Shown here: positions 1 to 52,167 of the stretch, in pieces
How the letters are laid out: each line of letters begins with the position of its first letter
Numbering within the stretch: position 1 is the first letter of the stretch
Source of the DNA: a virus
Lineage: Duplodnaviria; Caudoviricetes
Direction: 5' to 3' (one strand)
Virus record (IMG/VR): IMGVR_UViG_3300036859_000189
Coordinates: 1-55,189 of that record
DNA length: 55,189 nt
Translations under genes and position numbers: made by a program
The notes under the pieces: generated by a model
What the model was told of the DNA's origin: nothing
Databases searched by the model: none
The model's input: only the letters and a program-made list of their open reading frames with translations

Positions 1-127
1 GTTCTTTAAAAACCTAAAAGACACCACTTGCCGAACGAATTTATACCTATCCAAGTGGCGGGACCAAATCACCTCTGATGATTCGGTAATCGCATTCGCA
101 GGTTCGAATCCTGCACCCCCAGCCAAT
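1..127 (+). repeat. Left att copy (attP-like junction or attL)
   Basis: Identical to 51973-52099; the copies diverge right after ...cccccagccaat. Confidence 0.9.
86..125 (+). tRNA. 3' half of tRNA-Gln (likely att core; second copy 52058-52097)
   Basis: CATTC variable loop, GCAGG-TTCGAAT-CCTGC T-arm, ACCCCCA-G-CCA end. No matching TGGGGGT 5' strand in the window. Confidence 0.75.
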
Positions 128-142
128 AGATAGAAATAACAT

Positions 143-170
143 CCGTTTCCGGCAAGGAAGCGGGTTTTTT
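143..170 (+). terminator. Intrinsic terminator after the tRNA fragment
   Basis: ccgtttcc-ggcaa-ggaagcgg stem followed by a T run. Confidence 0.75.
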
Positions 171-174
171 ATTG

Positions 175-195
175 CCCGCCAACGTGCGGGTTTTT
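175..195 (+). terminator. Second tandem terminator
   Basis: cccgc-caacgt-gcggg followed by TTTTT. Confidence 0.6.
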
Positions 196-199
196 CAAT

Positions 200-1100
200 T
201 CCGTGGCCAATCAAGGTAAGTATTGACCACAGATAGGGCAACCCCCTAAGCCTCAGCGGCTTCACTCATCCTCAAGAGGAAGTAAAGCGACTAGCGACGG
301 CTGAATGAGCTGGATGGAGTTCCAGCAGGTGTTTTAACAATCTGGTGCGCTCCCCGGTGGGAATGCTGCGGTAAAGGCTCATTAGCTGGCAGTGAAAGTC
401 TGCTCCCTCCATGTAGGTAGAACCGCTTAGAGTCTCACCCGAGAGCGCATCAACCAAGACCTTCAGTAAGTACCTGCGGTGAGCAGTAGGGGCTGGAGGA
501 AATCGTATCTTGACAATTTAGCTAGGTAGCATGAGAGGGGGAAGGCGAGATATTTTCTATGTGATTCTGCATTACTAGACTATGTACGCCACAAGTGATG
601 AGCTTGTACCCCCTCTCATGCTACCTAGAACGTTAGACGGTAGCTGATGGCTGGGATATGCAAAAGTGGGTTATAAAAGCGGCCAGCTAATAACTGGTGA
701 CAGGCAAAGTACACGCTTGACTTGGCGGGCCCAATCCCGTCCCCAGCTGCCACCTACCGTCTAACAGATTGAGCTAGCTTACGAAAGTTGAGCGCTCACA
801 CAGGCAGAAACGGCTACGGGCGAACCACGGACCCTGCGTGAACTAGCCCAACCCAGGTAACAACCTATTCAGGTACATGCAGATAGATTTGTGCGGTAGG
901 GGCAGCGAGCTCCATCAATCCAGAGATGATACCTACCGCACACACCTGTCTACATGACAGGGGAACACTTGTCTGGCACTGCCTCACACGAGCGTCATTA
1001 CGATGGTGCTGGATGAGTCTACACAGGTAGCTTGGGCTGTCATCGGCTGGGATAAGGCCGTGTCAGCACAGGGCGGCCCAAGTCTGCGTAGGGGAACATT
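200..1100 (+). ncRNA. Structured non-coding leader with an array of long hairpins
   Basis: Inverted repeats 522-541/609-628 (20 bp perfect), 632-643/754-765, 890-900/932-942, 1031-1041/1072-1082 (G-U pairs on +). No credible ORF. Confidence 0.5.
649..752 (+). tRNA. Non-canonical tRNA-like element: anticodon AAT, long variable arm, G discriminator + CCA
   Basis: GGCTGGG/CCCAGCT acceptor then GCCA; GCCAG-CTAATAA-CTGGT anticodon arm; CAGGC/GCTTG variable arm; T-loop CCCAAT and D-arm atypical. Confidence 0.45.
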
Positions 1101-1121
1101 AACTTAAGGGAGTGGGAGAAT

Positions 1122-1304
1122 ATGAGCGACAAAACATTAGTCGGCGTAAACGCTGGCATCGCATTGTTCGTCTTCGTAGGTTGTACCTACTGGACGATTC
1201 TCAGGTTCGTGCCAACACAAGGCACATGGTTGAGATACGCCCTGCCGCTGATACCAATAGGCTTAGGCCTGGTTCAGCTAGCGCCGTATCTGAAGAAGAA
1301 ATAG
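1122..1304 (+). CDS. Small two-TM membrane protein
   Basis: GGGAG RBS, two hydrophobic segments, basic tail. Confidence 0.7.
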   Translation: MSDKTLVGVNAGIALFVFVGCTYWTILRFVPTQGTWLRYALPLIPIGLGLVQLAPYLKKK

Positions 1305-1589
1305 GAGTCGGTTAGACTGGCGCTGGTTGCGAGCCACTCCTCGTTGCCAGCACTGGCCTAACCGGCCGAGGGAGGCGAAGGGTTCTTAGTCGTCGCCTCC
1401 CTCCAGGACCACCGGCTCAGGTAAGCCGATAGGGAAGCGTATATCCGAACCCACTGGCGAATGAAGACCCAAGGGAGCCAGAGGGATAAGACGCATTACC
1501 TGAACCAGTGTTCCGTTCTGCCGGGGCGAGAGACTAGCCCTACACTTGTGCTCTCGTCCTTGCAGATTGGTTAAAGCAAAGGAGAAATT

Positions 1590-1796
1590 ATGCAACCCGA
1601 TGAAGACGAAATGGAAGATTTAGACGGAATAGTTGGTCGTGGAGCCGGAGACCCTGACATACACGGGTATCCAGGTGAACCCCCGATAGGCGATCCTGAA
1701 CGCTATGACTTTGAACCCGAGGAGGTTAATCCTCCGGTCTATCACTACCACGGCGTAACGCAGTGTGCGGAAAGGCACGATGAACCGGCCTTTTGA
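1590..1796 (+). CDS. Acidic hypothetical protein
   Basis: AAGGAG RBS; first gene of the early run. Confidence 0.6.
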   Translation: MQPDEDEMEDLDGIVGRGAGDPDIHGYPGEPPIGDPERYDFEPEEVNPPVYHYHGVTQCAERHDEPAF

Positions 1797-2019
1797 TTTG
1801 CTCACGATAGAGAAGATCGAAGCGCTGCAAGCCGAAGCCAAAGAAAAGGGTATGGAGGTGGACTGGGAGGCCGGAAAACTCGTCCCCAGAAAGTACGCAG
1901 GGATGTCCCACCACCAACGGGACGCGGTCGCCGCAGCGGACACGAGACGCCAACATTACAAAGATTTGAACGATCAGCAAGATAACGACGCCGCAAGTCC
2001 TGAACAGGCTTGGGCGTAG
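1780..2019 (+). CDS. Hypothetical protein
   Basis: Overlapping operon layout; start moved to the internal ATG. Confidence 0.6.
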   Translation: MNRPFDLLTIEKIEALQAEAKEKGMEVDWEAGKLVPRKYAGMSHHQRDAVAAADTRRQHYKDLNDQQDNDAASPEQAWA

Positions 2020-2026
2020 GAGACAT

Positions 2027-2341
2027 ATGGCTAAACCAAAGAATCACATTCCAGGACTTTCAGAAAAGCTCCAAGTGTATGCAGACTCACGTTTGCTCGA
2101 TCTACACCAGTACTCGCCCTACCACGCCAGGATTATGGACGGCGGGTTTGTTGTCCTTGATATTTGGACAACTGGTCGCTACTACATTCTGACCACTGAC
2201 TACGACGAAATGACTGACGGAAATGTTATCGAGCGTGGGGGAGAAAAGGGACAGGTACCAATCTCAAGTGTTGAGGATTTAGAAAGTTTCCTAGATTTAA
2301 TATTTTTCCCAGGGAAAGGGGACGCAGATGAGCAGAAGTAA
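2027..2341 (+). CDS. Hypothetical protein
   Basis: AGGAG RBS. Confidence 0.7.
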   Translation: MAKPKNHIPGLSEKLQVYADSRLLDLHQYSPYHARIMDGGFVVLDIWTTGRYYILTTDYDEMTDGNVIERGGEKGQVPISSVEDLESFLDLIFFPGKGDADEQK

Positions 2342-3014
2342 CCCAACGCCGACTAACCCGGCGAAGAAGTTTTTTAAGTGGAGCGGCAGCAAAGGCCAGT
2401 TGGTCTACTACGACAAGGAAAAACAGCTCGAAGTTGAAGTCAAGTTACCGTTTGAGTTTTTGGTTCTGGATCAGCTATCTACGATTACGGGTTTTAGTAA
2501 GCCTGAGAAGAGTGGCTATTGGTCCAACGAAGTCCGCTCGACGGTTAAAGAAGAGCTGACTGTAAAAACCGCTACGGGTACTAAATATGTCGGTCTGTAC
2601 AAGAATGATCAGGGCATCGTGCAGATACCGAAGGGTGCGAAATACGCCAAGTCGATATACCTCGCGTTTAAAGAAGGTGACGAGTTTGTGATCGGCAACC
2701 TGAAAGCCTCCGGTTCTGCTCTGACGGCTTGGATCGAGTTGAGTAATAGAAAAGTCGTTGAACTCGGCAAAATCACTATAACTGGCTCAGAGGTGGTGGA
2801 CGGCGATCTGGGCGAATATCACGTTCCAACATTTGAGTGGAGCAACGCTACGGCCGAAGAAGACGACGCTGCTAAAAAGTTGGATAAAGAACTCCAGATT
2901 TATTTGAGCCAGTATTTGTCAGCAGCACAGTTTGATCGAGCCTCGCAGCAGGATGGTCAAGAGGAAAGTGTCGATGTGTTAAACGAAGTGTTCCCAGAAG
3001 CAGAGCGCGAGTAA
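2328..3014 (+). CDS. Phage protein, possibly ssDNA-binding/recombination
   Basis: Beta-rich aromatic core with acidic C-terminal tail, near ninG; function is inference. Confidence 0.5.
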   Translation: MSRSNPTPTNPAKKFFKWSGSKGQLVYYDKEKQLEVEVKLPFEFLVLDQLSTITGFSKPEKSGYWSNEVRSTVKEELTVKTATGTKYVGLYKNDQGIVQIPKGAKYAKSIYLAFKEGDEFVIGNLKASGSALTAWIELSNRKVVELGKITITGSEVVDGDLGEYHVPTFEWSNATAEEDDAAKKLDKELQIYLSQYLSAAQFDRASQQDGQEESVDVLNEVFPEAERE

Positions 3015-3031
3015 TACCTGAGGGGGTATAG

Positions 3032-3361
3032 ATGCACAAGCAACTAGACTGGCTCGATCAGTTAGAAACGAACAGACGGCCATATATCGAAGAAGCCCGG
3101 CAAACCGCCCGGAAGCTTCTTTCAACGCGCCCCTACATCACGATTGATGATGTTAGGGCAGTTCTCCCGCCTCCAGAAGGAGTAGACCCTCGGGTTATGG
3201 GAGCGGTCTTTAAGCAGGACGAATTTGTGAGCGTGGGCTGGACGACCAGCAAGCGGAAGGTAAATCATCGCCGGCCGATTCAGCGGTTTAAGCTGAAATA
3301 TGATCCGCCTGAGGACGATCCGGATGAAACGCCGGAGCGGGAATATCCCGATGTCGCCTAG
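3032..3361 (+). CDS. Hypothetical phage protein
   Basis: GAGGGG RBS; DPRVMGAVF motif. Confidence 0.65.
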   Translation: MHKQLDWLDQLETNRRPYIEEARQTARKLLSTRPYITIDDVRAVLPPPEGVDPRVMGAVFKQDEFVSVGWTTSKRKVNHRRPIQRFKLKYDPPEDDPDETPEREYPDVA

Positions 3362-3734
3362 CGTAGCAAAGCTCAAGAAGAAAGCGGACGCGGCGTTCAG
3401 TTTGTACATCCGTCACAGAGACTCTAAAGACGGCCTGACGCAATGTATTACCTGCCCTGCCAGACGCCCGGTAAAGGAAATGCAGGCAGGGCATTTTGTC
3501 CGCAGGTCAGTTAATCTTCTTCGCTACAACGAAGAGAACGTCAACGCCCAGTGCCCCAGTTGCAACGTCTGGAAGTACGGAGAGCAGTACTTATACGCCC
3601 TTGCATTGGATGAGAAGTACGGTCCTGGAACCGCTGAGAGGTTGATGTCTCAGAGATTCAAGATGCACAAACTGACCATTCCCGAGTTGGAAGAAATTAT
3701 TAGATACAGCAAAGAACAGATTAAGGAGGTATAA
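3351..3734 (+). CDS. ninG: NinG/Rap-like recombination endonuclease
   Basis: FSLYIRHRD, CITC, QAGHF, NVNAQCPSCN motifs. Confidence 0.85.
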   Translation: MSPSVAKLKKKADAAFSLYIRHRDSKDGLTQCITCPARRPVKEMQAGHFVRRSVNLLRYNEENVNAQCPSCNVWKYGEQYLYALALDEKYGPGTAERLMSQRFKMHKLTIPELEEIIRYSKEQIKEV

Positions 3735-3735
3735 G

Positions 3736-4098
3736 TTGTCTGGGACGCTTACTGGCGGCAAGAAGGCCGCTGAAAATAACAAGAGGAAGTATGGACGTGA
3801 CTTCTACGCAAAGATCGGATCCAAGGGCGGCAAAGCTTCCACCACGGGCGGCTTCTACGCCAATCGTGAGTTAGCGAGCATCGCTGGGGCTAAGGGCGGT
3901 AAAAGGGGCCACAGAACGGCAGACACACCGGATGAACTTTTCGTTAGACTTTGGAACTGTTCACCCAGCCCCGCCACGGTGGCGAAGGTTCTTGACCAGA
4001 AACAATCTACCGCTGTTAACCGAGCGGTCCGCTTGAGAAAGAAAGGCTATGTTCTCAAGCCTATGCCCAAGGGAAGATATGCGAAAAGTAAATCATGA
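3736..4098 (+). CDS. KGG-repeat (general stress-like) protein with an HTH-like C-terminal extension
   Basis: GGKKAA..YGRDFYAKIGSKGG..ANRELASIAGAKGG; AAGGAGG RBS, TTG start. Confidence 0.75.
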   Translation: MSGTLTGGKKAAENNKRKYGRDFYAKIGSKGGKASTTGGFYANRELASIAGAKGGKRGHRTADTPDELFVRLWNCSPSPATVAKVLDQKQSTAVNRAVRLRKKGYVLKPMPKGRYAKSKS

Positions 4099-4289
4099 CG
4101 ATCCAGGCAGCTCAGTATATGACAAACAGACACAACAGTTTCAAGAAGACGTACAGGCTCGGAGAAAAGCCGTCAAACACGCGGTCAAAGCTATTCACCG
4201 CCGCAGCCGTAGCTGGCTGGATAAGTTTCGGGGTCGTGGTGTTTAAGCCTACGTGGGTGTTGGAAGTGTTACTAAATTTATTTAAGTGA
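4095..4289 (+). CDS. Small membrane protein
   Basis: ATGA overlap; C-terminal hydrophobic helix. Confidence 0.5.
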   Translation: MTIQAAQYMTNRHNSFKKTYRLGEKPSNTRSKLFTAAAVAGWISFGVVVFKPTWVLEVLLNLFK

Positions 4290-4300
4290 GGAGAAGCAAG

Positions 4301-5281
4301 ATGACACTAAAGTTTAAGCTTACGGACGAGACGAAGATCAACGCCTTTGGTGTGAAGTTGTTCCGTATTGAGGCTATCATGGACATTTCAGCGCGGAGTG
4401 TAAAGAAGGGCGATAAAGGCGGTTGGGTATCTAGCGAGAAGCTTGATAACGGTAACGCCAGGGTGTCCGGTGACGCCTGGGTGTCCGGTAACGCCGAGGT
4501 GTTCGGTGACGCCAGGGTGTCCGGTGACGCCAGGGTGTCCGGTGACGCCTGGGTGTCCGGTAACGCCGAGGTGTTCGGTGACGCCAGGGTGTCCGGTGAC
4601 GCCAGGGTGTCCGGTAACGCCGAGGTGTTCGGTGACGCCTGGGTGTCCGGTAACGCCGAGGTGTTCGGTGACGCCTGGGTGTTCGGTGACGCCAGGGTGT
4701 CCGGTGACGCCAGGGTGTCCGGTGACGCCGAGGTGTTCGGTGACGCCAGGGTGTCCGGTGACGCCAGGGTGTTCGGTAACGCCAGGGTGTCCGGTGACGC
4801 CGAGGTGTTCGGTGACGCCAGGGTGTCCGGTGACGCCTGGGTGTCCGGTAACGCCGAGGTGTTCGGTAACGCCGAGGTGTTCGGTGACGCCAGGGTGTTC
4901 GGTGACGCCAGGGTGTTCGGTGACGCCAGGGTGTTCGGTGACGCCTGGGTGTCCGGTGACGCCAGGTCTATTAAAGCCGACTTGTGGGAGCTGCTGTTAC
5001 ACGCTATTCCTGAAATCCCCGCTCTCAGACAGGCGATTGTCGATGGCAAAGTAGATGGCTCAGTATACGAGGGTGAGTGCGCTTGTTTGTGCGGCACGAT
5101 TGCTAACGTGAGACAGTGTAGTTACAAAGAACTCGAAGGTATAGACCCTAATAGCAATCGTCCCGCCGAGGCGTACTTCATGGGCATTAAAAAGGGTGAT
5201 ACTCCAGAGACTAATCCAATTGCTAAAGAAGTGCTTGGGTGGATTGACGAACTCCTGGCGTTGCTTAAGGCCGCGAACTAG
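4301..5281 (+). CDS. Hexapeptide-repeat (left-handed beta-helix-like) protein with a C-terminal GECACLCGT domain
   Basis: 28 x G[DN]A[RWE]V[SF]; GAGGAG RBS. Confidence 0.85.
4451..4966 (+). repeat. 18-bp tandem repeat, 28 units plus a partial unit
   Basis: ggt[g/a]acgcc[agg/tgg/gag]gtg[tcc/ttc]. Confidence 0.95.
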
Positions 5282-5293
5282 CAGGGAAAATGC

Positions 5294-5542
5294 ATGAACT
5301 ATAGACATTTTCTTGAAGAGAAGCACTGGAGCAGGTTCTTAGATTGGCTTAGCGAAGTGTCCTTTGACCCTCGTAACGGTGAGCACATCGACACGATCTT
5401 CTGGTGGTGGATTATCAATGTCCAGTTCCCGGCAGAAGACGAAAAGCGTGCTAAAGAAGTCGAGCGGGAAGGGTCTAACCCCACGCCTACGAGCGAACCA
5501 CCAGCCGCCGAAGGCGCGGGAACTAGCCAGGAGGGCTTATGA
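5294..5542 (+). CDS. Hypothetical protein
   Basis: Operon spacing; tail encoded by the early repeat. Confidence 0.6.
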   Translation: MNYRHFLEEKHWSRFLDWLSEVSFDPRNGEHIDTIFWWWIINVQFPAEDEKRAKEVEREGSNPTPTSEPPAAEGAGTSQEGL

Positions 5543-5928
5543 GTAAGACACCCACCACAGACGTTAAGAGCTCCCCAGGTGTAGCCGTGGTTAGCCGTCG
5601 TAATCTCAGGCGCGGGCAAGCCAGTCTGTACGACCTTATAGTTTCAAAGCTCGATACGGGAGAACGCATCACGCTCGACGAAGCTGAGAATATCTGGCGC
5701 ACGAAGGTCTGTCGCAACATGCTTAAAGGCGTTCCGCACTCTTACAGATTCTACCCCGCTGAAGACGGTACAAATAATTGGTATGGCAGGTACGACCCTA
5801 TGTCGCGTGACGAAATCACTTTCACCGTGCTCAACTGGCTTACCAAAAACATCGGTATCTTAGTCATCCGAGGGTACTTGAAAGTCATACCCATGATTGA
5901 GCTAGAGCCAGCAAGGAGCCTTAAATGA
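5539..5928 (+). CDS. Hypothetical protein
   Basis: GGAGG RBS, ATGA overlap. Confidence 0.65.
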   Translation: MSKTPTTDVKSSPGVAVVSRRNLRRGQASLYDLIVSKLDTGERITLDEAENIWRTKVCRNMLKGVPHSYRFYPAEDGTNNWYGRYDPMSRDEITFTVLNWLTKNIGILVIRGYLKVIPMIELEPARSLK

Positions 5929-6094
5929 CCACCGAAGTCGAGCGCTCTCCTCTGCTCACGCGTGCCCGTACGAACCACCGGCTCCTGCGCAAACTAGTCC
6001 ACATCCACAAATACACCACAACAGGGGACAACCTCTACACCTACACCAAAACCTGCCCCTGCGGAAAGACTAAGACAATAAGGAGGAACATGTA

Positions 6095-6766
6095 ATGAAG
6101 ATCATTACTAAAGTGGTCGTCGGTTCACGTCTCCACAACCTTCATACTGAGAAGTCAGACTATGACTATCGTGGCGTACATATAAACGACCTTAAGGATG
6201 TTCTAAGCCCTTTTGCCAAGACGCGGAGCACTACATGGATCGAGGGCGACGAAGACAATACCAGCTACGAGCTGGCGGAGTTCTGCAAACATGCCACACA
6301 AGGCAGCGCTACCATCCTTGAAGTCTTTTTCTCTAACCAAATTATTGAGTCCTCGCCGATAGCCGACGAACTGCGGGCTAACTGGCAGAAATTCATGGAC
6401 ACCGACAAGTTTGTACTCGCTAGCCGGGGGTACGCGCATAACCAGTACAATAAGATGCAGTTGTTTGAACCTGACCAGCGCACGCCTAAATTCGCTGTAG
6501 CCTACGTCCGGGTGTTGTGGCAATGCGCGGAGTTTCTAAAGGCCGGAGAATTCCCTTGCCAAATTACCGAACCGTACGTGCATGACTTCCTCATGGATGT
6601 GAAGAACAACTTTAGCATCAAGTACGTCCCTAAACTTACTGAAATGTTCATGGAAATGCAGAAGCGTGTCACCGATGCGTACAGCCACCCGGCCCTGAGA
6701 CTAAAGCCAGACATTAATTGGATCGAGGAGTTTATCTACGATGCGTACACCAGCAATAATCTGTGA
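6095..6766 (+). CDS. Pol-beta-superfamily nucleotidyltransferase (YcgL/RlaP-like)
   Basis: VGSRLHNL..SDYDYRG signature. Confidence 0.85.
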   Translation: MKIITKVVVGSRLHNLHTEKSDYDYRGVHINDLKDVLSPFAKTRSTTWIEGDEDNTSYELAEFCKHATQGSATILEVFFSNQIIESSPIADELRANWQKFMDTDKFVLASRGYAHNQYNKMQLFEPDQRTPKFAVAYVRVLWQCAEFLKAGEFPCQITEPYVHDFLMDVKNNFSIKYVPKLTEMFMEMQKRVTDAYSHPALRLKPDINWIEEFIYDAYTSNNL

Positions 6767-7154
6767 CATCGACGGCACTCTCGCGCACATGAAAGACCGT
6801 AGCCCATATGACTACTCCAAGGTGTCAGAGGACGAGGTTGACCACGCTATTAGGCTCCTGCTTATCCAAATGGGGCGCGTTTGTGCGGTCATCCTTGTTT
6901 CTGGTAGAAAGTCCTGGTGCAAAACCGATACTGAACAGTGGCTTAAGGACAATCGCGTCGCCTACGATTATCTATTCATGGATCGTCAAACCGATGACAA
7001 CCGCAAAGACACCATCATTAAACAAGAAATGTACGAGCAGCATATCAAAGGGAAGTATGATGTCCTGTTCGTGCTAGACGACCGCCAACAGGTCGTGGAC
7101 TTTTGGAGAAGCGTGGGCCTTAAATGCCTACAAGTGGCGAAGGGAGATTTCTAA
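6741..7154 (+). CDS. HAD-family 3'-phosphatase (T4 PNK/PseT C-terminal-like)
   Basis: DIDGTLA, VSGR, K, LDDR..VV..W..QVAKGDF. Confidence 0.9.
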   Translation: MRTPAIICDIDGTLAHMKDRSPYDYSKVSEDEVDHAIRLLLIQMGRVCAVILVSGRKSWCKTDTEQWLKDNRVAYDYLFMDRQTDDNRKDTIIKQEMYEQHIKGKYDVLFVLDDRQQVVDFWRSVGLKCLQVAKGDF

Positions 7155-7256
7155 TGACCACACAAGCCGAAGACACCGGGTCGCAGCAAGACTCACAAGC
7201 GAACCACACGCCCTCGCGTGAGCTAGCAACAGGGGCACTAAAGAAGAAAGAGAATT

Positions 7257-7715
7257 ATGAACAAACACTACTACGGTACAGTTCAAGAAAGTAACAAGGG
7301 CAAGTTTGCCATACAAATTCCACTTGAATACCCGTCTTGGGGGTCAGGGCTTGTCTTGCCACCCGTTATTGAGGCACAGCTTTGGGGTCAATATCCAGTT
7401 GTTTTCGTTCTAAACACAGGTCAGGCAGAATTAGCCAAGGCCTTTGATGTTAACCAACAGTCAGTATCTCGCTACCTTAAAAATGGCGAGGGGATTCAAG
7501 AGCTCATCACGGCCGGTACATATTCTGAGGTCGATATTTGGGGCTATTCGCCCACAAAACGCAGGATGAAAGCAGCGCGGGCTACTACCGAAGTTGAGCG
7601 GTTGCAAGGAAACGACACCAAGCTCCCAAGCGAATCACTGACCGAAGCGCGAACTAGCCCAGAACTAACGGGGGAGAATCGGCATGAGTTACGAGCAATT
7701 CGCGAGTTTGCTTAA
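7257..7715 (+). CDS. Hypothetical protein with HTH-like segment
   Basis: QAELAKAFDVNQQSVSRYL resembles a helix-turn-helix. Confidence 0.55.
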   Translation: MNKHYYGTVQESNKGKFAIQIPLEYPSWGSGLVLPPVIEAQLWGQYPVVFVLNTGQAELAKAFDVNQQSVSRYLKNGEGIQELITAGTYSEVDIWGYSPTKRRMKAARATTEVERLQGNDTKLPSESLTEARTSPELTGENRHELRAIREFA

Positions 7716-7872
7716 ATACCTTGCTGTAAGCATAGGTATCGGTGTGGCGTTCAACATAGGCTGGGCGATCATATTCTGGAATAATGACGACCTGTTTATG
7801 TGGCACTGGTTGTCCGTACCACTAACGATGCTAATTATGCTGTATGGCGGAATCAGGAGTTGGAAGCTATGA
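7684..7872 (+). CDS. Small two-TM membrane protein
   Basis: GGGAG RBS; hydrophobic. Confidence 0.65.
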   Translation: MSYEQFASLLKYLAVSIGIGVAFNIGWAIIFWNNDDLFMWHWLSVPLTMLIMLYGGIRSWKL

Positions 7873-8329
7873 CCGCTCCAGAATCCCCACAGGCACAAGA
7901 CCTAGTCAGCAACTGCTGCCACGCTGAAATGAAAGTTATGGGCGGTTCTCACGAAGGGGCCACCAACTACTACAAATGCCTTGCTTGTGGTGAGCCGTGT
8001 GACCCATACGCTTCCGACTTCCCTCAACCACACAAGGCTCCCAAGCGAACCACAGACCTTCCGAAAGCTAGCCCTCCCGGCCCAGGGGATGCACAGGGAA
8101 AGTTAGACAGAATCATGGAAGATTTAATCGTCGGCCATAACTTTGAATACGCCCGAAAGGCGATCCTAGCCCTCCTCTCAGACACGCTAGAACAGGTAGA
8201 GGCAGAGGGGCCAAAAGATGTAGATTATCGAAGTATGGGAGTCAAGATGACTGACTACGATGCTGGTGGGAATGAAGCCAACGCAGCCTGGCACAAACAC
8301 ATCGCTGCTACAAGACGGAGGTTACTGGG

Positions 8330-8333
<4 letters not shown>
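7869..8333 (+). CDS. Mosaic hypothetical protein with N-terminal Zn-finger-like segment
   Basis: SNCC...CLACGEPC; a copy of the early repeat splits two segments. Confidence 0.6.
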
Positions 8334-9185
<852 letters not shown>

Positions 9186-9186
<1 letters not shown>

Positions 9187-9479
9187 TGAAACTAGGTGAC
9201 TTAGAAGTAATGATTAACGGAGCAGCCCACGAACTGTTGGAGAAGCTTGAGCGTGGCGAGAACGGCCTAGACGAGTTTCTTGAAGAAATGCTCAAGATCG
9301 TAAGTGGAGCACAAGTGGACTTGTTTGAAAAGTCTATCATTAAATTCCATGATAATTTTACCGAAGACCAAGTATCAGACATCAGAGGCAAACTTATCCG
9401 CGCTTGGATTGAATGGAACGAGAAAATGACAGGTCGAAATCCCGAAAATTACAAGAAGAAGGACACTGACTATGCCTAA
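9186..9479 (+). CDS. Hypothetical protein
   Basis: AGGAGG RBS. Confidence 0.7.
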
Positions 9480-9591
9480 CAACAGCCCTCATAAATGTAT
9501 CAAGTGTGGCGAACCAGCAAATAGTCCCATGTGGAAAACATACTGTTGGGATTGCTACTACAAATACACTGACGGAAAGGTTTTTGAGTGA
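9472..9591 (+). CDS. Small Zn-finger-like protein (39 aa, not in ORF track)
   Basis: MPNNSPHKCIKC...CWDC; AAGGA RBS. Confidence 0.5.
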   Translation: MPNNSPHKCIKCGEPANSPMWKTYCWDCYYKYTDGKVFE

Positions 9592-9593
9592 CC

Positions 9594-9938
9594 ATGCCTA
9601 ACACCACACCAGAAGAGCACCACGGCATGATTTGCGGCTGTTCATCCTGCGTCAAGCTTAAAGGCGGCGCTAGTGATGTCGTAAAAGGCAGCCGCACCAC
9701 ACCAGACACAAATACCATTCGAGAAATCTTGCAACGCTACATCGCCGAGTACGAAGACGGTGACGTCCTTAAAGCCGGAGATGACGCCGAGGCAGCCCTG
9801 AAAGCCCGTGAGGATCGTCTTAGCCACCTAGCGCGGATTGATGAGATTGAGTTAATGCAGAAAGGCTGGCGGGGCTTTACGTCATGGTACGACCGCAATA
9901 GCGAACGCCTCGCCCATCTAAGAAAGGACAGAACATGA
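9594..9938 (+). CDS. Hypothetical protein
   Basis: Operon continuity; CGCSSC. Confidence 0.6.
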   Translation: MPNTTPEEHHGMICGCSSCVKLKGGASDVVKGSRTTPDTNTIREILQRYIAEYEDGDVLKAGDDAEAALKAREDRLSHLARIDEIELMQKGWRGFTSWYDRNSERLAHLRKDRT

Positions 9939-10264
9939 GCAGAGCAAACGCACAAGTTAAATTTCCCGACGGGACAATCAAGCACGGTATCTACAATGGC
10001 ACTATCGACGTCTATATGGCCTACTTGACCAATTCCAACGAAGAAGCCTGGAATCTGTGGGACGCGTACAAGAAAAGTGGCTATGACGACTCACTATTCG
10101 AAAAGCGGGGAGATACTGAATTTTTTGAAGTTGAGATTGCAGACGATTATGGTGGCGGTGACACCTATAGGGGTCAGGCCACGAAGTCCCAAATTGTGAG
10201 CGAGCTTGACACTGACGACATGGAAAAAATTAAAGACGGTCTACCTGAATGGTGGGTTTCATGA
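9935..10264 (+). CDS. Hypothetical protein
   Basis: AAGGA RBS, ATGA overlap. Confidence 0.7.
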   Translation: MSRANAQVKFPDGTIKHGIYNGTIDVYMAYLTNSNEEAWNLWDAYKKSGYDDSLFEKRGDTEFFEVEIADDYGGGDTYRGQATKSQIVSELDTDDMEKIKDGLPEWWVS

Positions 10265-10554
10265 CCAACACCCCAGACAGTGAGCTGCGAAAAAAAGTCC
10301 TAGGCAAGATACACTTAGCAGTAAGGACTGATTTCTATAATGCCAACCGAAAGAACATGGAGTTTTTGGCTGACGATATTGAAGCCATAGTCCAGGCTAA
10401 GGTAGTAGAGGCACTAATCCTAGAACTTGAGAAGCTTGCAAATGTCTACCACGGCCAAGAATATCTCGACAAAGCCAGAGAACAAACGTGTATCGTTATG
10501 TTCGACAATCTCAGGATGCTCAAGGCACAAACTAAATCAGGAGGGAAGACGTGA
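10261..10554 (+). CDS. Hypothetical protein
   Basis: ATGA overlap. Confidence 0.6.
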   Translation: MTNTPDSELRKKVLGKIHLAVRTDFYNANRKNMEFLADDIEAIVQAKVVEALILELEKLANVYHGQEYLDKAREQTCIVMFDNLRMLKAQTKSGGKT

Positions 10555-10904
10555 ACGTAAAACAATATCGTAAGAAACCAGTGGTTATTGAGGCAATGCA
10601 CCCGATTGGATATACAGAGTTCAAAGCTGTTGAAGAGTGGGCCGCAGAAAGTGGCGTAGTCGTGATTGCGATGCAAGAGAATACGGGACCAGCCTTTCTC
10701 CTCATTAAAACGCTTGAAGGCACAATGCGTGCTGAGGTCGGAGACTACATCATCAAAGGCGTAAAGGGCGAGTTCTACCCGTGCAAACCGGACATCTTTG
10801 AGGCCACGTACGAGCCCGTGGACGCTCCAGACACCGGAAGCACCACCAGTGATAGTGCGAACACTGGACCGCGTAAGCCGGAAGCTAGCAAGGAGACACT
10901 CTAA
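10551..10904 (+). CDS. Conserved phage protein (YRKKPVVIEA...GDYIIKG...YPCKPDIF family)
   Basis: Recognisable widespread phage family, function unknown. Confidence 0.8.
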   Translation: MNVKQYRKKPVVIEAMHPIGYTEFKAVEEWAAESGVVVIAMQENTGPAFLLIKTLEGTMRAEVGDYIIKGVKGEFYPCKPDIFEATYEPVDAPDTGSTTSDSANTGPRKPEASKETL

Positions 10905-10961
10905 TGGAAAGACGAGGTTTGAAGTAAACTAGTCAGGTACAATACTAGCTTAGGAGAGATT

Positions 10962-11159
10962 ATGAGCAAAGAAAAACGTGCCAAGCAGCTTTTGGACGAA
11001 ACCTACCCAGGGCTCACTAACGCACAGATCACCGAGATACAGAGAAGGCGTTTGGCGACTGAGATTGCACAACGTCGGATTAATAGAGCGATAGAACGCA
11101 TCGCGGAGCGTGGTTTACAAAAGATGGAAGAACTACGGCGTCGGGGCTTGGTGCAATGA
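10962..11159 (+). CDS. Small basic helical protein
   Basis: AGGAG RBS. Confidence 0.6.
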   Translation: MSKEKRAKQLLDETYPGLTNAQITEIQRRRLATEIAQRRINRAIERIAERGLQKMEELRRRGLVQ

Positions 11160-11261
11160 CCGACTGCTGCTTTAAACGCATCCCAGACAACTTCTACTGC
11201 CACCACGCGTATCAGAAGGTACCGTGTCATTTGTGCTGTTTAGACGGTGTATAATTAAGCC

Positions 11262-11399
11262 GTGATTAGATACATCAAACTGGAACTGATCAGATACGCA
11301 GCGTTTACGGTGTTAGTCTATGTCGTGTTGCGGTTGCTTGTCACGGGTTACCAATCAGATAAGTTTACAAGGATGGTTGCATGGCTGGAGACGAAATAA
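11262..11399 (+). CDS. Small membrane protein, possibly leaderless (not in ORF track)
   Basis: TATAAT (11250-11255) 6 nt before GTG; one TM helix. Confidence 0.4.
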   Translation: MIRYIKLELIRYAAFTVLVYVVLRLLVTGYQSDKFTRMVAWLETK

Positions 11400-11880
11400 G
11401 TGAGTATCCGAGAAAAGGTACGTTTGTTTGCCCAGACCTGGGATGTGTCCACGAGTACTGGGAAACGGCCCCTGACGAGTTCGAGCCTTACACGGGGCAA
11501 GATGCGGAATGATGGTCATTTGTGCTGGGAGGAGATGTGAAACTCCACAATTCCATTCATGTCTATATGGGGAGTGGCGGTGTGCCCCCCGACCCCATTC
11601 ACGGGGAGATAAAATACACCGGTTCCAGGAGCCTGTGTGACTGCGAGAAGGGAGAGGATCATGGGATCAAGTATCTGGAGTCTAAGGAAACCGCGCCGTT
11701 ATCCAAGCATGAGCTTGCTTTTTACCTGCGGATAAAGAAACCAAAGTTGAGTGCCCCCTGAACGACGCTGTACTTCCGTACGAACCACAGACCTGTCGCG
11801 AACTAGCCCAGTTCTACGGAACAGGTCTTTTTTTAGTTAGACCCTTGTTATAAAGCCCAGCCTGTTATTAAGTGAGCTAT

Positions 11881-12465
11881 ATGGCAGGAAACCAAAGACT
11901 CTCAATAGCAGAAGAAACCAAGATAGTCGCTCTCCTCGCTAGGGGAGACACCTACCAACAGATACAAGCTGCCTTCGAAGGACTTAGGAAGCTGAACGAA
12001 AAGACCATCCGCAAGGTAAAGATACGGAATAAAGAAAACTTAGACCTGATTAAAGAAAGACAACTCCAGAGGGAAGAAGCGGACGCTTTGGCCATTAAGC
12101 AGAAGGCTAATAAACTTATCTCTAGACGCTTGGATCAATCAGATCACGATGCCGAAGCTCTCGTTAAGGCAAACGAAGACTTTGCTAAGGGAACGATTAA
12201 TTACAAAGAGTGGCAAACACTTGTAGCTAAACTAAAGCCCACAAGCCTCCCAGAGCTTGTCTCAGTCTCTCGGGAGATGCATAACCAATCGAGTACCGAA
12301 ACTCCGCCACAAACCCCTCACAAGGATCTACAAGCGCTGGTAGCGGCTATCCGTTCGGGTGATGAAGTAAGATTAAGTGAAATGGTATTTAAGGGGAAAA
12401 GTGATGATCTCAGCCCGGCACCTCAGGGACTACCTCAACGAGATGCTGCGCCTAGCGTGGACTAG
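11881..12465 (+). CDS. Probable terminase small subunit
   Basis: N-terminal HTH-like region plus helical body; first gene after the late motif, upstream of terL. Confidence 0.5.
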   Translation: MAGNQRLSIAEETKIVALLARGDTYQQIQAAFEGLRKLNEKTIRKVKIRNKENLDLIKERQLQREEADALAIKQKANKLISRRLDQSDHDAEALVKANEDFAKGTINYKEWQTLVAKLKPTSLPELVSVSREMHNQSSTETPPQTPHKDLQALVAAIRSGDEVRLSEMVFKGKSDDLSPAPQGLPQRDAAPSVD

Positions 12466-12685
12466 CGGAATATCTTTCAAGCTGCATTATAAGGATCGAG
12501 TGTTCTTGCTGACCATCGAACCAACTGGCGAGACATATAAACGCAGGCCTCCGAAGCGCAAGAAGAAGGGCAAAGTATACGTCTACCTCAACGAATGCGA
12601 AGAGTGCAGGGGGATACTGGTGAGTGGGATGTGTATAGAGAAGTCATGCCCAAGTAATAATCAAGAGTCGCACAATATTACCTAA
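12404..12685 (+). CDS. Basic protein with C-terminal CxxC...CxxxxC
   Basis: KRRPPKRKKKGK, CEEC...CIEKSC. Confidence 0.5.
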   Translation: MISARHLRDYLNEMLRLAWTSGISFKLHYKDRVFLLTIEPTGETYKRRPPKRKKKGKVYVYLNECEECRGILVSGMCIEKSCPSNNQESHNIT

Positions 12686-13303: not shown

Positions 13304-14833
13304 GTGGACTTTACGGATCTTGATGAAGATGATATTAAACGCCTGGCTTTGCAGCAGGTGGCGCTTCGTTGTAAGACGGATTTATTCTTTTTAGACAAAG
13401 AGATTTTGGGCTACGGGAAGATGACTCCAAAGACTCATCAGGAGTTGTGTGATTATACGACGTCTGTCTTGCCGAATCCTCCAGAGATTTCCCTGGAAGG
13501 GTACGACCCTAAAAAGAATCTTCTCCTCTTATTGATGCCCCGAGGGACGTTTAAGACTTCCGTGGTGACGATTGGTCTGACGTTACAGTTCTTTCTCCAG
13601 GAACCGGACGGACGTGTGCTCCTAGACTCGGAAACGTTTGCTAAATCGAAGGCTTTCCTTCGTGAGATTAAATGGCATTTGGAGAGCAACGAGAAATATC
13701 GGGAGGTCTTCAAAGCGATTCACGGGATGTATCCGTTTGAGACGAAGAATAAAGCGATTCTCTGGACTGACAGTGAGTTAATCCTCCCATGCAGGAAGCG
13801 AAGTAGAAAGGAACCCTCTATCTCTTGCGCGGGGATCGACGTTACGAAAAACGGTATGCATTATGATTTGATTATCGCGGACGATCTTCACTCGGAGCGG
13901 AACGTTACGAATAAGGAACAGATTGAGCAGGTGATCGACCATTATAAGCTGGCGTTCTCTCTGTTGGACCCGGGGAAACCTTTTATTATCATCGGGACGC
14001 GGTGGGATTACTCTGATTTATATCAACATATTCTCGACTTCGAGGCCGATGACTTCAATATTCTCAAAAAGAGCGCGTATAACGATGACGGGTCTTTGTT
14101 TTTCCCCGAGGTTTTGAACGAAATGGAGCTGGACAAGATTCGAAGGCGGCAGGGGACGTCCATCTTTTCTAAACAGTATTTAAATGAACCTGTCTCGGAT
14201 GAGAACGCGACCTTTAAACGGGATAAAATCGTTCGCAAACCCTGGGATGAGGTGAAGAATCGGCCGGTGAATTGGTATTTATCCGTCGATCCCTCCTACG
14301 AAGGGACGTATTCGGACTTCGCGGCCTTAGTGATCGCGGGGATGGACTACCAGAGAGACTTATATGTGAAGCATGTTGTCCGGAAGAAGTTAACGTATGG
14401 AGAAATCATCCAGGAAATCTTCAAACTCTATACAGAATCCGACGTTCGCATCCAAAAGATCCTTATTGAAACGGTCGCGACCCAAAAGAGTATCGGGATT
14501 GAACTCGCGAACGAACAAAAACGAAGAAACACCTGGCTGCCTATTCAAGAGATCCGTTCGAGACAGCAATCTAAAGAGGAACGCATCCGGGGGCTGGCCC
14601 CTTTCTACGAATTTAACCATATTTTCCATGTTAAAGAATGCCCCCAGATCGAGGAACTCGAATACGAGCTTCTTCATTTCCCAACCGGGAGACATGATGA
14701 CGTGGTGGACGCGTTAGCCAACATCTTAGAGGTGGCCTCGCCGCCGATGAACCGACAAACGCCGTATGATCGCGAGAGAAAGCGCAACAACCCCCTTGCT
14801 TGGAAGCCCAAGAGCGCAATCACGGGATACTAG
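13304..14833 (+). CDS. terL: Terminase large subunit
   Basis: PRGTFKT Walker A, IIADD Walker B, GTRW, SVDP, HDDVVDAL nuclease motifs. Confidence 0.93.
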   Translation: MDFTDLDEDDIKRLALQQVALRCKTDLFFLDKEILGYGKMTPKTHQELCDYTTSVLPNPPEISLEGYDPKKNLLLLLMPRGTFKTSVVTIGLTLQFFLQEPDGRVLLDSETFAKSKAFLREIKWHLESNEKYREVFKAIHGMYPFETKNKAILWTDSELILPCRKRSRKEPSISCAGIDVTKNGMHYDLIIADDLHSERNVTNKEQIEQVIDHYKLAFSLLDPGKPFIIIGTRWDYSDLYQHILDFEADDFNILKKSAYNDDGSLFFPEVLNEMELDKIRRRQGTSIFSKQYLNEPVSDENATFKRDKIVRKPWDEVKNRPVNWYLSVDPSYEGTYSDFAALVIAGMDYQRDLYVKHVVRKKLTYGEIIQEIFKLYTESDVRIQKILIETVATQKSIGIELANEQKRRNTWLPIQEIRSRQQSKEERIRGLAPFYEFNHIFHVKECPQIEELEYELLHFPTGRHDDVVDALANILEVASPPMNRQTPYDRERKRNNPLAWKPKSAITGY

Positions 14834-14878: not shown

Positions 14879-17092
14879 ATGGCGACAAAAGATGACGACC
14901 TTGAGCAGCAGCTCAAAGATTTGACCGACCAGGAACTAGAATTAAAGACAATCGGCCAGAAAAACGGCTGGAAACCTAAGAACAAAATGGAGCGCGGCGT
15001 TCGCCGGCAGGTATACGAACGCTTTTATGAACTCAGGGACGCGCCCTCCCGACTAGAAGCCGAGGCTGACTGGGCCATCGCCGATAAAGAATTCCGCATG
15101 TTCATCCCTCCAGATGGGAGCGTTGACTTTGACCGCCGAACCGTCGCAGACGTTGACGACTGGCGATCTAAACTCCAGCTACCCGATGCATTCTCCGCGA
15201 TTCAAACCCAAATGCAGGAGACGATCGAGCGAAAATCCCGTCCGGTCTTGAACCCGACCGAAGAATCCGATGAGCCGATAACTGAGTTTGGCAATGCTGT
15301 ACTGACGTACAACATGAACAACACGAATTATGATTACGAGTGGTTCTTAGCAAAACTCGCGGCGGCGAGCCGGGGAACGGCTTTTGTAAAAGATTACTGG
15401 CGGTTGGATAAACGGATCGTAAAAGACCCTTATGATGTCGACGAAGACGGGGAACTGAAATATCGCGACAAAGAGATTATCGACATCGACGACGACTACA
15501 CCGAGTGGCTCCCAAATGAATATTTATATATAGACGAAAAAGCCCTTCATATTAATAACGCGATTGACTCGGTTGAACGCGAGATTCTGAACGTCAACGA
15601 ATTCAAACGAGTATACGGGCGTAAGCCGGGGTTCGTTAATACCGATTTCGTCCAACCTGGCGGGGATACGACAACCCGGTCTTTCTTCCAAATGCCGAAA
15701 GACATCAATGAAAACGATGTTGAGGTACTACATTACTACAATAAGGCCATAGACGCCTATTGGGTAGTAGCCAATAATATCTGTATCCACTATGGGCCGA
15801 TCCCTTATAAACACAAAGAGCTACCCTACGCCGTCCTCTACGAATACCGTGTCCCTGGCCTGTTCTGGGGTCTGGGGATACCCAAAGTAATTCATTTCCT
15901 ATCCGAAGAGCGGGCTACGATCCGACGGATGAACATGGATCGCCAGAAGATGAACATTCATAAGATGTTCCTCCACAACTCAGCATTTGGGCTCGACGAT
16001 GAGGATGTAGTAATCCGTCCGATGGGGATTATCTCTGTCGACACCAACGGTCAGAGTATTGATAACGCGATTAAACCCCTTGAATTCGGCGATGTCCCGG
16101 CTTCGTACTTTAAGACTGAGGAGATTCTCCAAGAGGATATGCGCCGGGGTCATGGTATTGACGACCGGATTGTCGTTTCTAATCAGGGGACGACTGCGAC
16201 CCAGGCAGCGATTGTTAAGGAGTCTTCCCTGAAACGATTGAACATGATCTCAATTCAAGCCGAGATGGACACGGTTATCCGTGTGGGACGGTTGAAATGG
16301 TCTAACATCCAATTCTTTTATCCCGTCCCTCGCATGGAGAAAATCTATGACGGCGATAAAGAGAGCGAAGAAAAGACTTATCGCAAGATTTCGGTTGAGG
16401 GTAAGAAGTTCGAGCTGGTTAAAAACTCAGACGATGCTAAACCTGAATTGAGGATGAATGATGTCCGTGGCGCGACAGCTCTTCGTTTAGACAAGAAGAT
16501 GGCGAAATACCTTCAGGGGTCGTTTGACATCTCAGTCGATTCATCGGTTTACACGCCAGTCTCTAAAGCTTTGCAGCAATCCAAGGTTACAGAGGTGTTT
16601 AGCCTGGTTTTGTCGAATCCTGCTACTCTATCCGTTCTCGATCCTGAGAAGGCTGTTGCTCGACTGCTTACTGTGAACGAAGAGAAGCCTGACAACTGGA
16701 TGAAGCTTAAAGACGGAAAGACGACTGCCGACTGGCAGAAACTAGCCGATGCCGAGAATATGATCATGGCAGCTGGCCAACCTCTGGCCCCCACGGAGGA
16801 CGCAACCGAAGAGCATACGATGGAGCACCTGAACTATACGAAGACGGTTGAGTTCGCCGGACTCCCAGAAGAGGTTCAACAGATAATCATGGATCACATC
16901 CTCGGAGAGCACGACGCCAACCCAGCGACGGGGATGTCTTCCGATCTTCTCGCTGCGAACGGTCTCTCTCCAGGCGGGCAAGTCCCTGCAGGCATGGCAA
17001 CTCCGGAACCGATGGGGCTGTCCGCTGAGACCAGTGAACCCCAGAACCAAGTAGCCGATCTCCAGCCAACTAACTTCGCAGTGCCTGAATAG
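14879..17092 (+). CDS. Portal protein (P22-like)
   Basis: 737 aa directly after terL; FWGLGI and GTTATQAAI motifs. Confidence 0.85.
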   Translation: MATKDDDLEQQLKDLTDQELELKTIGQKNGWKPKNKMERGVRRQVYERFYELRDAPSRLEAEADWAIADKEFRMFIPPDGSVDFDRRTVADVDDWRSKLQLPDAFSAIQTQMQETIERKSRPVLNPTEESDEPITEFGNAVLTYNMNNTNYDYEWFLAKLAAASRGTAFVKDYWRLDKRIVKDPYDVDEDGELKYRDKEIIDIDDDYTEWLPNEYLYIDEKALHINNAIDSVEREILNVNEFKRVYGRKPGFVNTDFVQPGGDTTTRSFFQMPKDINENDVEVLHYYNKAIDAYWVVANNICIHYGPIPYKHKELPYAVLYEYRVPGLFWGLGIPKVIHFLSEERATIRRMNMDRQKMNIHKMFLHNSAFGLDDEDVVIRPMGIISVDTNGQSIDNAIKPLEFGDVPASYFKTEEILQEDMRRGHGIDDRIVVSNQGTTATQAAIVKESSLKRLNMISIQAEMDTVIRVGRLKWSNIQFFYPVPRMEKIYDGDKESEEKTYRKISVEGKKFELVKNSDDAKPELRMNDVRGATALRLDKKMAKYLQGSFDISVDSSVYTPVSKALQQSKVTEVFSLVLSNPATLSVLDPEKAVARLLTVNEEKPDNWMKLKDGKTTADWQKLADAENMIMAAGQPLAPTEDATEEHTMEHLNYTKTVEFAGLPEEVQQIIMDHILGEHDANPATGMSSDLLAANGLSPGGQVPAGMATPEPMGLSAETSEPQNQVADLQPTNFAVPE

Positions 17093-20991: not shown

Positions 20992-21074
20992 AATTAGACA
21001 CTTGCATTATTCCCATGCTATGATTCCGATAACGGCTAGTCTCTTAGATGCACAAGTGTAGAAGTTATCTACAC

Positions 21075-51940: not shown

Positions 51941-51985
51941 CAAACATATAGGCTCATGCTAAACTGTGTTTAGTTCTTTAAAAAC
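51937..51985 (+). promoter_or_regulatory. Sigma70 promoter plus boxA-like element facing att
   Basis: TTGACA (51937)-N17-TAAACT (51960) with extended TG; GTTCTTTAAAAA at 51973. Confidence 0.7.
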
Positions 51986-52099: not shown

Positions 52100-52167
52100 T
52101 TCTCGACTAGCGCTCTGAAATCTCTTGAATATCAGCCTGTATTTTCTTGTTAGCCGAATACTCTCCG

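Follow-up and report, generated by a model that had tools for sequence, protein, structure and literature searches.

A repeated tripartite element at gene junctions of a soil prophage and of otherwise dissimilar phage contigs: a candidate promoter-like DNA signal

Nine copies of the element in the early gene region

The window analyzed in this work is one IMG/VR virus record of 55,189 bp (IMGVR_UViG_3300036859_000189), which is a prophage with nearly all phage genes on the + strand. Its repeat-bearing region (1.1-11.8 kb) is a densely packed, nin-like array of small genes, and here and in the preceding leader we find nine copies (c1-c9) of an element of ~65 bases, located at gene junctions. 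The element consists of an upstream (first) box followed by a second and a third box, of which the best-kept parts are the hexamers G/A-CGAAC and RCTAGC, respectively. The copies and the open reading frames (ORFs) around them are as follows.

c1, 785..847, + strand: forward upstream box 785-796; GCGAAC 820-825; 16-nt spacer; ACTAGC 842-847; in the non-coding leader, 274 nt ahead of the first early gene (ATG 1122)
c2, 5456..5527, + strand: forward upstream box; GCGAAC 5493; aberrant spacer (23 nt, insert GCC-GAA-GGC); ACTAGC to 5527; in the 3' tail of ORF 5294-5542, next ATG 11 nt on
c3, 5934..5998, + strand: forward upstream box; ACGAAC 5970; 17-nt spacer; ACTAGT; within the mini-ORF 5925-6095, which overlaps the stop of the previous gene (ATGA) and the start of the next one (TAATG)
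c4, 7164..7227, + strand: degenerate forward upstream box (AAGCCGAAG); GCGAAC 7199; 17-nt spacer; GCTAGC; within the mini-ORF 7154-7294, next ATG (7257) 29 nt on
c5, 7590..7658, + strand: forward upstream box; GCGAAT 7630; 17-nt spacer; ACTAGC; in the 3' part of ORF 7257-7715 (weakly similar to helix-turn-helix (HTH)/Cro-like proteins), next ATG (7684) 25 nt on
c6, 8009..8072, + strand: reversed upstream box CGCTTCCGACT at 8009; GCGAAC 8045; 16-nt spacer; GCTAGC; within ORF 7800-8333 and the small ORF 7999-8106
c7, 9085..9149, + strand: forward upstream box; GCGAAC 9122; 16-nt spacer; GCTAGC; encodes a 34-residue tail of the exoribonuclease ORF 8602-9186, absent from the homolog in locus L145; next ATG (9186) 36 nt on
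c8 (degenerate), 10823..10889, + strand: reversed-type upstream box CGCTCCAGACA at 10823; GCGAAC 10857; aberrant spacer (21 nt, insert GC-GTAA-GC); GCTAGC; in the 3' tail of the MazG-like ORF 10551-10904
c9, 11743..11807, + strand: variant forward upstream box (AAAGTTGAGTG); ACGAAC 11780; 16-nt spacer; ACTAGC; spans the stop codon of ORF 11522-11761

The exact second-box word CGAACCAC occurs seven times in the window, always on the + strand (821, 5494, 5971, 7200, 8046, 9123 and 11781), while dinucleotide shuffles contain it 1.8 ± 1.4 times and none of 100 reach seven. The bipartite pattern CGAACCAC-N8-22-RARCTAGY retrieves the same seven sites, with 0.00 matches in the shuffles; the copies at 7631 (CGAATCAC) and 10858 (CGAACACT) are degenerate. 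A nine-copy profile matches only those nine sites in the window (next-best match: E-value 9.4), and the covariance-model search (E ≤ 1) reported no copies on the - strand and none past 11.8 kb, although the nine copies themselves match both kinds of models by construction, because the models were built from them. Pattern counts, profile and covariance searches thus agree with the original prediction, made from the sequence alone, of nine copies in one orientation and none in the late region. The excess is not a by-product of the encoded proteins: in 500 codon-preserving (synonymous) shuffles of the 28 early ORFs the mean number of bipartite matches was 0.58 and the maximum 3, while 7 are observed in ORFs.

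The finer geometry required one correction. The distance between CGAACCAC and the third-box motif had been given as 11-12 nt in seven copies and 17-18 nt in the other two; we find 11 nt at 821, 8046, 9123 and 11781, 12 nt at 5971, 7200 and 7631, and 18 nt at 5494, but 16 nt at 10858. Upstream boxes are present at 785, 5456, 5934, 7590 and 9085, where they had been predicted, and further ones were detected as a GAGTG variant at 11743, in a degenerate form at 7164, and in the reversed form (CGCTnCnGAC) at 8009 and 10823.

Reading frames across the copies

Most copies fall within the final 20-35 codons of an ORF or occupy a mini-ORF of their own, and the ORFs that bear them show no relationship among themselves. 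All three frames are used across the second box (read as S-E-P, E-R-T or x-N-H) and two across the third; because of the former, the constraint must operate at the nucleotide level, as had been proposed originally, and we rejected a coding explanation. The exoribonuclease gene with c7 provides an illustration: its similarity to homologs ends exactly at the start of the element, and the L145 homolog stops four residues later. The element therefore behaves as junction DNA that is incidentally read through.

We regard it as very improbable that the copies represent a conserved peptide tail or tRNA relics on the reverse strand. The upstream box is read in the E-V/A-E frame in nearly all ORF-embedded copies, as a peptide tail would require, and the reverse strand contains GGTTCG-like and TAGYTC-like words, in which the original prediction saw a resemblance to the tRNA T-loop and D-arm; moreover, the prophage integrates at a tRNA-like 3' end. 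However, neither Rfam (at the gathering threshold and at E ≤ 5) nor ARAGORN reported anything at the copies on either strand, and the two words are only 11-12 nt apart, vs. ~35 nt in a tRNA, so the resemblance is superficial, while the use of three and two frames by the second and the third box largely refutes the peptide.

Architecture and occurrence of the element in other contigs

Apart from the one in L122, copies outside the window were found by pattern scans and then scored with the models. The resulting set of 23 copies is distributed as follows.

Window: 9 copies
L199, metagenome contig: 7 copies in 8 kb
G008, 36-kb podovirus-like temperate contig: 3 copies within 1.1 kb
L208: 2 copies, facing each other
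L186: 1 copy
L122, a terminase relative of the window phage: 1 copy, the single profile match (E-value 1.7e-5)

In the 23 copies, the two hexamers are separated by 16 nt (10 copies), 17 nt (10 copies) or 18 nt (one copy), and only the two outliers from the window have 21 and 23 nt. The preference persists among the copies whose spacing was not set by the scan pattern: 16 of 19 have 16-17 nt, in searches that allowed 14-23 nt. Two copies from L199 (6047 and 6851) retain the hexamers and their spacing with a different spacer sequence, and both were missed by the covariance model. The upstream box AAGTYGAGCG starts 35-39 nt ahead of the first hexamer in 10 copies; in five others the reversed box CGCTnnnGACT(T), i.e. 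the reverse complement with two extra central bases, starts 34-36 nt ahead of it. The orientation with respect to local genes is the same in 21 of 23 copies, and both antisense copies are of the reversed-box type. The next start codon is located 24-36 nt past RCTAGC in 10 of the 23 copies, a distance sufficient for a short leader that includes a Shine-Dalgarno sequence, and 2, 5 or 11 nt past it in three. The composition is strongly biased, with 11% T (vs. 21% in the region) and 35% C (vs. 23%), and an excess of C over G in some copies only.

All contigs that bear the element have a GC content of 45-49%, and matches of the pattern in high-GC sequences, such as contig L180, are probably due to chance; one collection scan was dominated by single chance matches. 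Among terminase relatives (22 IMG/VR loci and one genome locus), the exact motif was found in none of the 22 IMG/VR loci and a profile match in one (L122); of five whole records of terminase relatives, one carries a copy. Six loci related by the exonuclease gene yielded no profile matches, and the full tripartite patterns had no matches in IMG/VR. In the one named metagenome-assembled genome with a terminase relative (G004), the motif was absent, vs. 3-4 occurrences of a control pattern; the 16S model RF00177 was not found there either.

The phages concerned have almost nothing else in common. Comparison of stop-to-stop ORFs (blastp and phmmer) of the window with those of G008, L199, L208, L186 and L180 revealed only the integrase of G008 (32% identity) and three syntenic genes of L208. 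L122 was compared by tblastx, and the region ahead of its terminase gave only two short matches to the first 13 kb of the window. G008, L122 and the window are alike in that the copies lie in a small-gene region upstream of the terminase.

Some related arrangements deserve mention. In L208 (766-889) the two copies face each other at a distance of 46 nt, and each has its own mini-ORF, which is translationally coupled and located on the coding (-) strand; in RNA this pair would fold into a long imperfect hairpin, and as promoters the two would be convergent. A more distant terminase relative, L141, possesses in the equivalent region upstream of the terminase (4206-6980) a four-copy family of its own, with an internal hairpin (GACTAGTG..GCCCA..CCGGAGTGTTCCGG..CCTAGCG). 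In the window itself, the late gene 43093-43722 contains at 43112-43139 a third-box-like GAACTAGCCCAA with no first hexamer upstream; together with GCTAGTTC, 10 nt further on, it makes up an 8-bp inverted repeat.

The same data bear on the possibility, raised in the original prediction in the form of recombination anchors, that the element is a recombination linker or a selfish miniature element, kept through cassette exchange or non-autonomous spread and devoid of any regulatory role. Such an origin would account for its junction to unrelated genes in unrelated phage contigs, within gene-rich, fast-changing accessory regions whose genes are almost without homologs in terminase relatives, for the ORF tails that are missing from homologs, and for the sub-families that cross genomes (the reversed-box class and a 'GGGTCTG' class are both common to several genomes). 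However, the copies average only 47% identity and their exact shared runs are short (the longest common box has 8-12 nt), which makes them a poor substrate for homologous recombination and is unlike recent transposition. The mean identity is the same within genomes (0.474) as between them (0.465; for the core 0.656 and 0.659, respectively), as expected for sites held to a consensus rather than for recent duplicates. Terminal inverted repeats and hairpins are lacking, and the confinement of conservation to specific boxes at fixed spacing indicates selection for recognition. We therefore consider this explanation quite improbable.

Tests for RNA structure and for known elements

Folding of the nine window copies one by one gave z-scores between -2.1 and +1.1, and the RNAalifold consensus contained no base pairs for either the 9 or the 23 copies. 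A helix between the first and the third box, drawn by hand, was rejected, as 70.8% of its cells were paired vs. 68.5 ± 2.3% after shuffling, a value equaled by 120 of 500 shuffles. A folded RNA element is not supported. In particular, the copies exhibit no conserved structure or covariation of the kind expected of a structured RNA such as a nut/put-type antiterminator, an RNase III site or a riboswitch, and neither the hairpin nor the near-identical copies (mean pairwise identity 0.47) of selfish repeats of the repetitive extragenic palindrome (REP) or miniature inverted-repeat transposable element (MITE) type.

Several other candidates were tried and dropped. Only four of the seven copies tested for a Rho-utilization (rut) site exceed the 90th percentile of C-minus-G excess, with a normal pooled G content. 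LexA (the CGAAC half-site), DnaA-box, sigma-54 and 16S complementarity were also considered; the full motifs are absent. Integron attC sites are imperfect inverted repeats (R''-L''...L'-R') that carry RYYYAAC at the 5' terminus and GTTRRRY at the 3' terminus and fold into a hairpin; the element has no dyad symmetry or predicted pairing, and its GTTGAGC-like words stand at the 5' side, i.e. in the wrong order.

An alternative to a folded element is an unstructured site acting in cis in the polycistronic early mRNA, where a protein or another RNA would bind to single-stranded CGAACCAC and GARCUAGC and control translation start, processing, stability or termination at the junction ahead of the next ribosome-binding site. 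The original suggestion of an RNA (anti)termination or processing element fares unevenly here: the structure tests give nothing, and the hairpin-like inserts of the two long-spacer copies (GCC-GAA-GGC and GC-GTAA-GC), which in RNA would hold the boxes near each other, speak in its favor. So do the sense-strand bias (21 of 23 copies), the position of copies just ahead of ribosome-binding sites, the T-poor composition with little predicted structure, and the presence of genes for RNA end-processing (RlaP, PNKP and exoribonuclease) among the copies. On the other hand, conserved structure and covariation are lacking, two copies are antisense to genes, and the rut-like C-over-G excess is limited to some copies. 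A reverse-complemented upstream box at the same distance is an altogether different sequence in RNA, and most copies are translated through, in three frames, so that bound factors would be stripped off. On balance, we judge an RNA site to be unlikely.

A promoter-like signal as the tentative interpretation

The occurrence of the upstream box at one distance from the hexamers in either orientation fits double-stranded DNA and not RNA. Taken together, the fixed spacing of the hexamers, the box that keeps its distance either way round and the conservation of a consensus among phages with no common protein fit a double-stranded DNA signal read by the host; the ORF comparison, in which only the G008 integrase and three L208 genes were common with the window, points to a reader encoded by the host. 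We therefore tentatively favor, as a possibility that falls short of being probable, that the element is a promoter-like regulatory cassette acting at the DNA level and read by a host factor. The promoter-like role is the most economical one because of the co-orientation with genes, the 24-36 nt to the start codons and the place of c1 at the head of the operon. A spacing of 16-18 bp, typical of promoter hexamers, is found in 21 of 23 copies. It may be added that two scans of the + strand at 192-1121, i.e. the leader with c1, reported no sigma-70-type promoter.

In the mechanism we propose, the core would be the promoter-like pair of hexamers G/A-CGAAC and RCTAGC, 16-17 bp apart, with an auxiliary factor site ~35 bp further upstream that could work in either orientation. 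Both hexamers, as putative -35/-10-like elements, would be recognized by a DNA-reading factor encoded by the host, most simply RNA polymerase with a non-housekeeping sigma factor, for which the 'AAC' of the first hexamer, reminiscent of extracytoplasmic function (ECF) sigma factors, might be a hint; a protein bound to the upstream box possibly assists the polymerase. Transcription would start at the copies, a few bases past RCTAGC and before the next ribosome-binding site, separately for each small gene or gene group, c1 would serve as the first promoter of the operon, and the signal would travel with accessory genes from phage to phage. A more specific version of this idea, which we consider doubtful, is that of a portable module of ~65 bp in temperate phages of soil, composed of the orientation-free box and GCGAAC-N16/17-RCTAGC, which is read by the host and rides with single accessory genes into one host-controlled regulon; its reader would perhaps be an alternative sigma factor with a new -10 specificity.

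A number of observations speak against a promoter. ECF promoters have a CGT-type -10 element; neither this nor the housekeeping TAnnnT was found at the copies, and a consensus scan revealed no sigma-70-like site there. RCTAGC(CC) is G+C-rich and without the A/T pattern of a housekeeping -10, in an element with only 11% T as a whole. Two well-kept copies, c8 and c2, have long spacers (21 and 23 nt, respectively) that contain short hairpin-like inserts and are easier to accommodate in RNA than in a promoter. In the three copies with a start codon only 2, 5 or 11 nt away, the distance is too short for a leader that would serve that gene, and two copies (L199, 3823-3862; L208, 766-804) are antisense to the genes around them. 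The mini-ORFs that carry c3 and both L208 copies overlap the preceding stop and the following start codon (ATGA or TAATG), therefore ribosomes traverse the element on a polycistronic RNA. Finally, neither sigma factor nor RNA polymerase genes were identified by Pfam searches of the window, G008 and L199.

Operators or roadblock sites, to which a phage- or host-encoded repressor-like protein would bind in order to block or modulate the polymerase on its way through the early operon, constitute another DNA-level explanation, which we hold to be unlikely. Dispersed asymmetric operators are known from phages P1 and phi105, and the element is likewise asymmetric, multi-copy and in one orientation to transcription, and occupies gene junctions as well as the leader of an operon in an integrated prophage; its fixed spacing and orientation-free box would suit a two-domain or oligomeric binder equally well as a promoter. 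Weak HTH candidates are encoded at 7257-7589 (Cro/HTH_3, E-value 0.01-0.04) and at 3736-4098 (winged-helix, E-value 0.014), and the latter gene has a homolog in L208, which bears the element. The stoperator-like protein sites put forward in the original prediction are compatible with the element as a DNA-level oriented protein site, but no repressor was identified, and no DNA-binding protein is common to the window and to G008 or L199, both of which are incomplete records. Moreover, the sites are restricted to 0.8-11.8 kb and not genome-wide, and the core of 28-29 bp with its upstream box is far longer than the 13-14 bp of stoperators.

Accessory (moron and nin-type) regions of temperate phages carry anti-defense, RNA-repair and host-modifying genes, whose expression and exchange are little understood beyond a few model phages. 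If the promoter-like interpretation is true, the element would provide a common regulatory 'socket' for accessory genes of phages that otherwise have almost nothing in common, a promoter-borne counterpart of integron or promoter-early stem-loop (PeSL) cassettes. It would also indicate a host factor, possibly with an uncharacterized sigma specificity, in uncultured soil bacteria, and would serve as a sequence tag that ties phages to the same host group. Were the copies operators or RNA sites, they would still make up a new family of cis-elements in phages, with a well-defined consensus.

Genomic context of the prophage

The window begins with one copy of an exact 127-bp direct repeat, and the second copy adjoins the integrase gene. 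The following features frame the region that bears the element.

1-127 and 51973-52099: 127-bp direct repeat, identical in both copies and tRNA-like at its 3' end (GGTTCGAATCC...CCA)
3300-3734: NinG, in the nin-like region
6095-6766: RlaP-type nucleotidyltransferase, in the nin-like region
6741-7154: PNKP phosphatase domain, in the nin-like region
8602-9186: Rv2179c-like 3'-5' exoribonuclease, in the nin-like region
10551-10904: MazG-like protein, in the nin-like region
11790-11835, + strand: intrinsic-terminator-like hairpin (AGACCTGT...ACAGGTCT) followed by a run of seven T (from the fold of 11735-11835)
13304-14833: terminase large subunit
14879-17092: portal
51098-51940: tyrosine integrase, adjoining the right 127-bp repeat

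The 127-bp repeats, one of them beside an integrase, are attachment (att) sites; hence, the phage is in the integrated state and 52100-55189 belongs to the flanking host DNA, with a gene for an S10-peptidase-like protein and the beginning of an ABC transporter gene. ARAGORN detected no complete tRNA, so the repeat may correspond to the 3' portion of a tRNA or tmRNA gene, with the 5' portion located beyond the record. A search with the flank protein gave no clear answer as to the host phylum. The stretch is present in two soil DNA metagenomes, one of which is its possible source, and no RNA run was listed; in the contigs of these two metagenomes its sequence is identical, with no variant junctions. 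We found no close relative among GenBank phages, in IMG/VR or among the contigs of the metagenome runs; GenBank phages contained no sequence close to 1-12500, their terminases reach at most 27% identity, and the best blastn match with c7 has an E-value of ~9.

The hairpin at 11790-11835, whose 5' arm falls within the spacer of c9, marks the end of the repeat-bearing operon. The genes for RNA end-processing that are interspersed with the copies, i.e. those of the RlaP nucleotidyltransferase and the PNKP phosphatase (6095-7154) and of the Rv2179c-like exoribonuclease (8602-9186), may constitute a counter-defense module for the repair of tRNA or other RNA.

Further features of the window were observed. 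The ~0.8 kb of non-coding DNA that separates the left att site from the first early gene (330-1100) has a folding energy of -317 vs. -260 ± 6 kcal/mol in 20 shuffles (z-score -9.5) and contains five long inverted repeats (343-452; 522-628, with 20/20 bp; 632-765; 876-956; 1031-1082). It has no match in Rfam and is not conserved in the loci fetched, with the exception of c1, which lies between two of the hairpins. This stretch could be a large structured RNA or a control or replication region at the DNA level.

A second motif, AGACCCTTG, occurs seven times, only on the + strand (11839, 13262, 14837, 17097, 24779, 36322 and 42041), and six of the seven sites stand exactly 41-42 nt before start codons that lack a Shine-Dalgarno sequence (11881, 13304, 14879, 17139, 36363 and 42083). 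The geometry TTGnnn-N17/18-TAnnnN-N5-7-ATG suggests late promoters of leaderless mRNAs, and the same layout is found between the terminase and the portal gene of a relative (L131, 5636).

ORF 4286-5281 contains 29 tandem copies of an 18-bp unit, which encode a hexapeptide repeat (Pfam: YdcK beta-solenoid, bactofilin); in a terminase relative (L128), a similar array consists of 15-bp units. Genes for glycosyltransferases, methyltransferases and nucleotide-sugar epimerases occupy ~13 kb (21048-34267) within the late (structural) region, an unusual feature in phages of such a size.

Comparison with known systems

The PeSL of T4-like phages combines a sigma-70 early promoter with a terminator stem-loop (PMC4122927). 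Our element resembles it as a small composite motif that is repeated, in one orientation, among small variable genes of plastic regions in divergent phages and that, as is proposed for PeSLs, may move with cassettes (PMC4122927). It differs in that its hexamers do not match the sigma-70 consensus, in that it lacks a conserved stem-loop (a terminator follows c9 alone), and in that its phage is temperate and not T4-like.

Another composite repeat is formed by the start-associated sequence (SAS) and its extended form (ESAS) in Cluster K mycobacteriophages: the ESAS, a 17-bp inverted repeat whose spacer varies, immediately precedes a SAS that is tied to the translation start, and the authors left the function open (PMC3203893). 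Like our element, it is a repeated, conserved sequence associated with gene starts that keeps one orientation, apart from an occasional copy on the opposite strand, and it is conserved among related phages (PMC3203893). In contrast, the element includes neither an inverted repeat nor a ribosome-binding site, and it is located 2-36 nt or more from the start codon.

The asymmetry of the element, its many copies per genome in one orientation (nine of nine on the + strand in the window, 21 of 23 in the sense direction overall) and its location in short intergenic spaces or gene ends of temperate phages are reminiscent of stoperators. The stoperators of Cluster A mycobacteriophages are single sites of 13-14 bp, bound by the phage repressor and distributed across the whole genome, whereas the element possesses a bipartite core of 28-29 bp and an upstream box, is confined to one operon, and is found in phages without a common repressor-like protein.

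Promoters of alternative sigma factors of the ECF type carry 'AAC' in their upstream block and precede accessory or stress-type genes. The element differs from them in that its conservation extends over ~65 nt and in that no cognate sigma factor was found with Pfam, and we know of no -10 motif that matches RCTAGC; it is like them in having two short blocks 16-17 bp apart, with 'AAC' in the upstream one. A limited text search of the literature for the two box words returned unrelated papers only and nothing on the motif. Altogether, the copies represent a conserved family of cis-elements that is of a known general kind and apparently undescribed.

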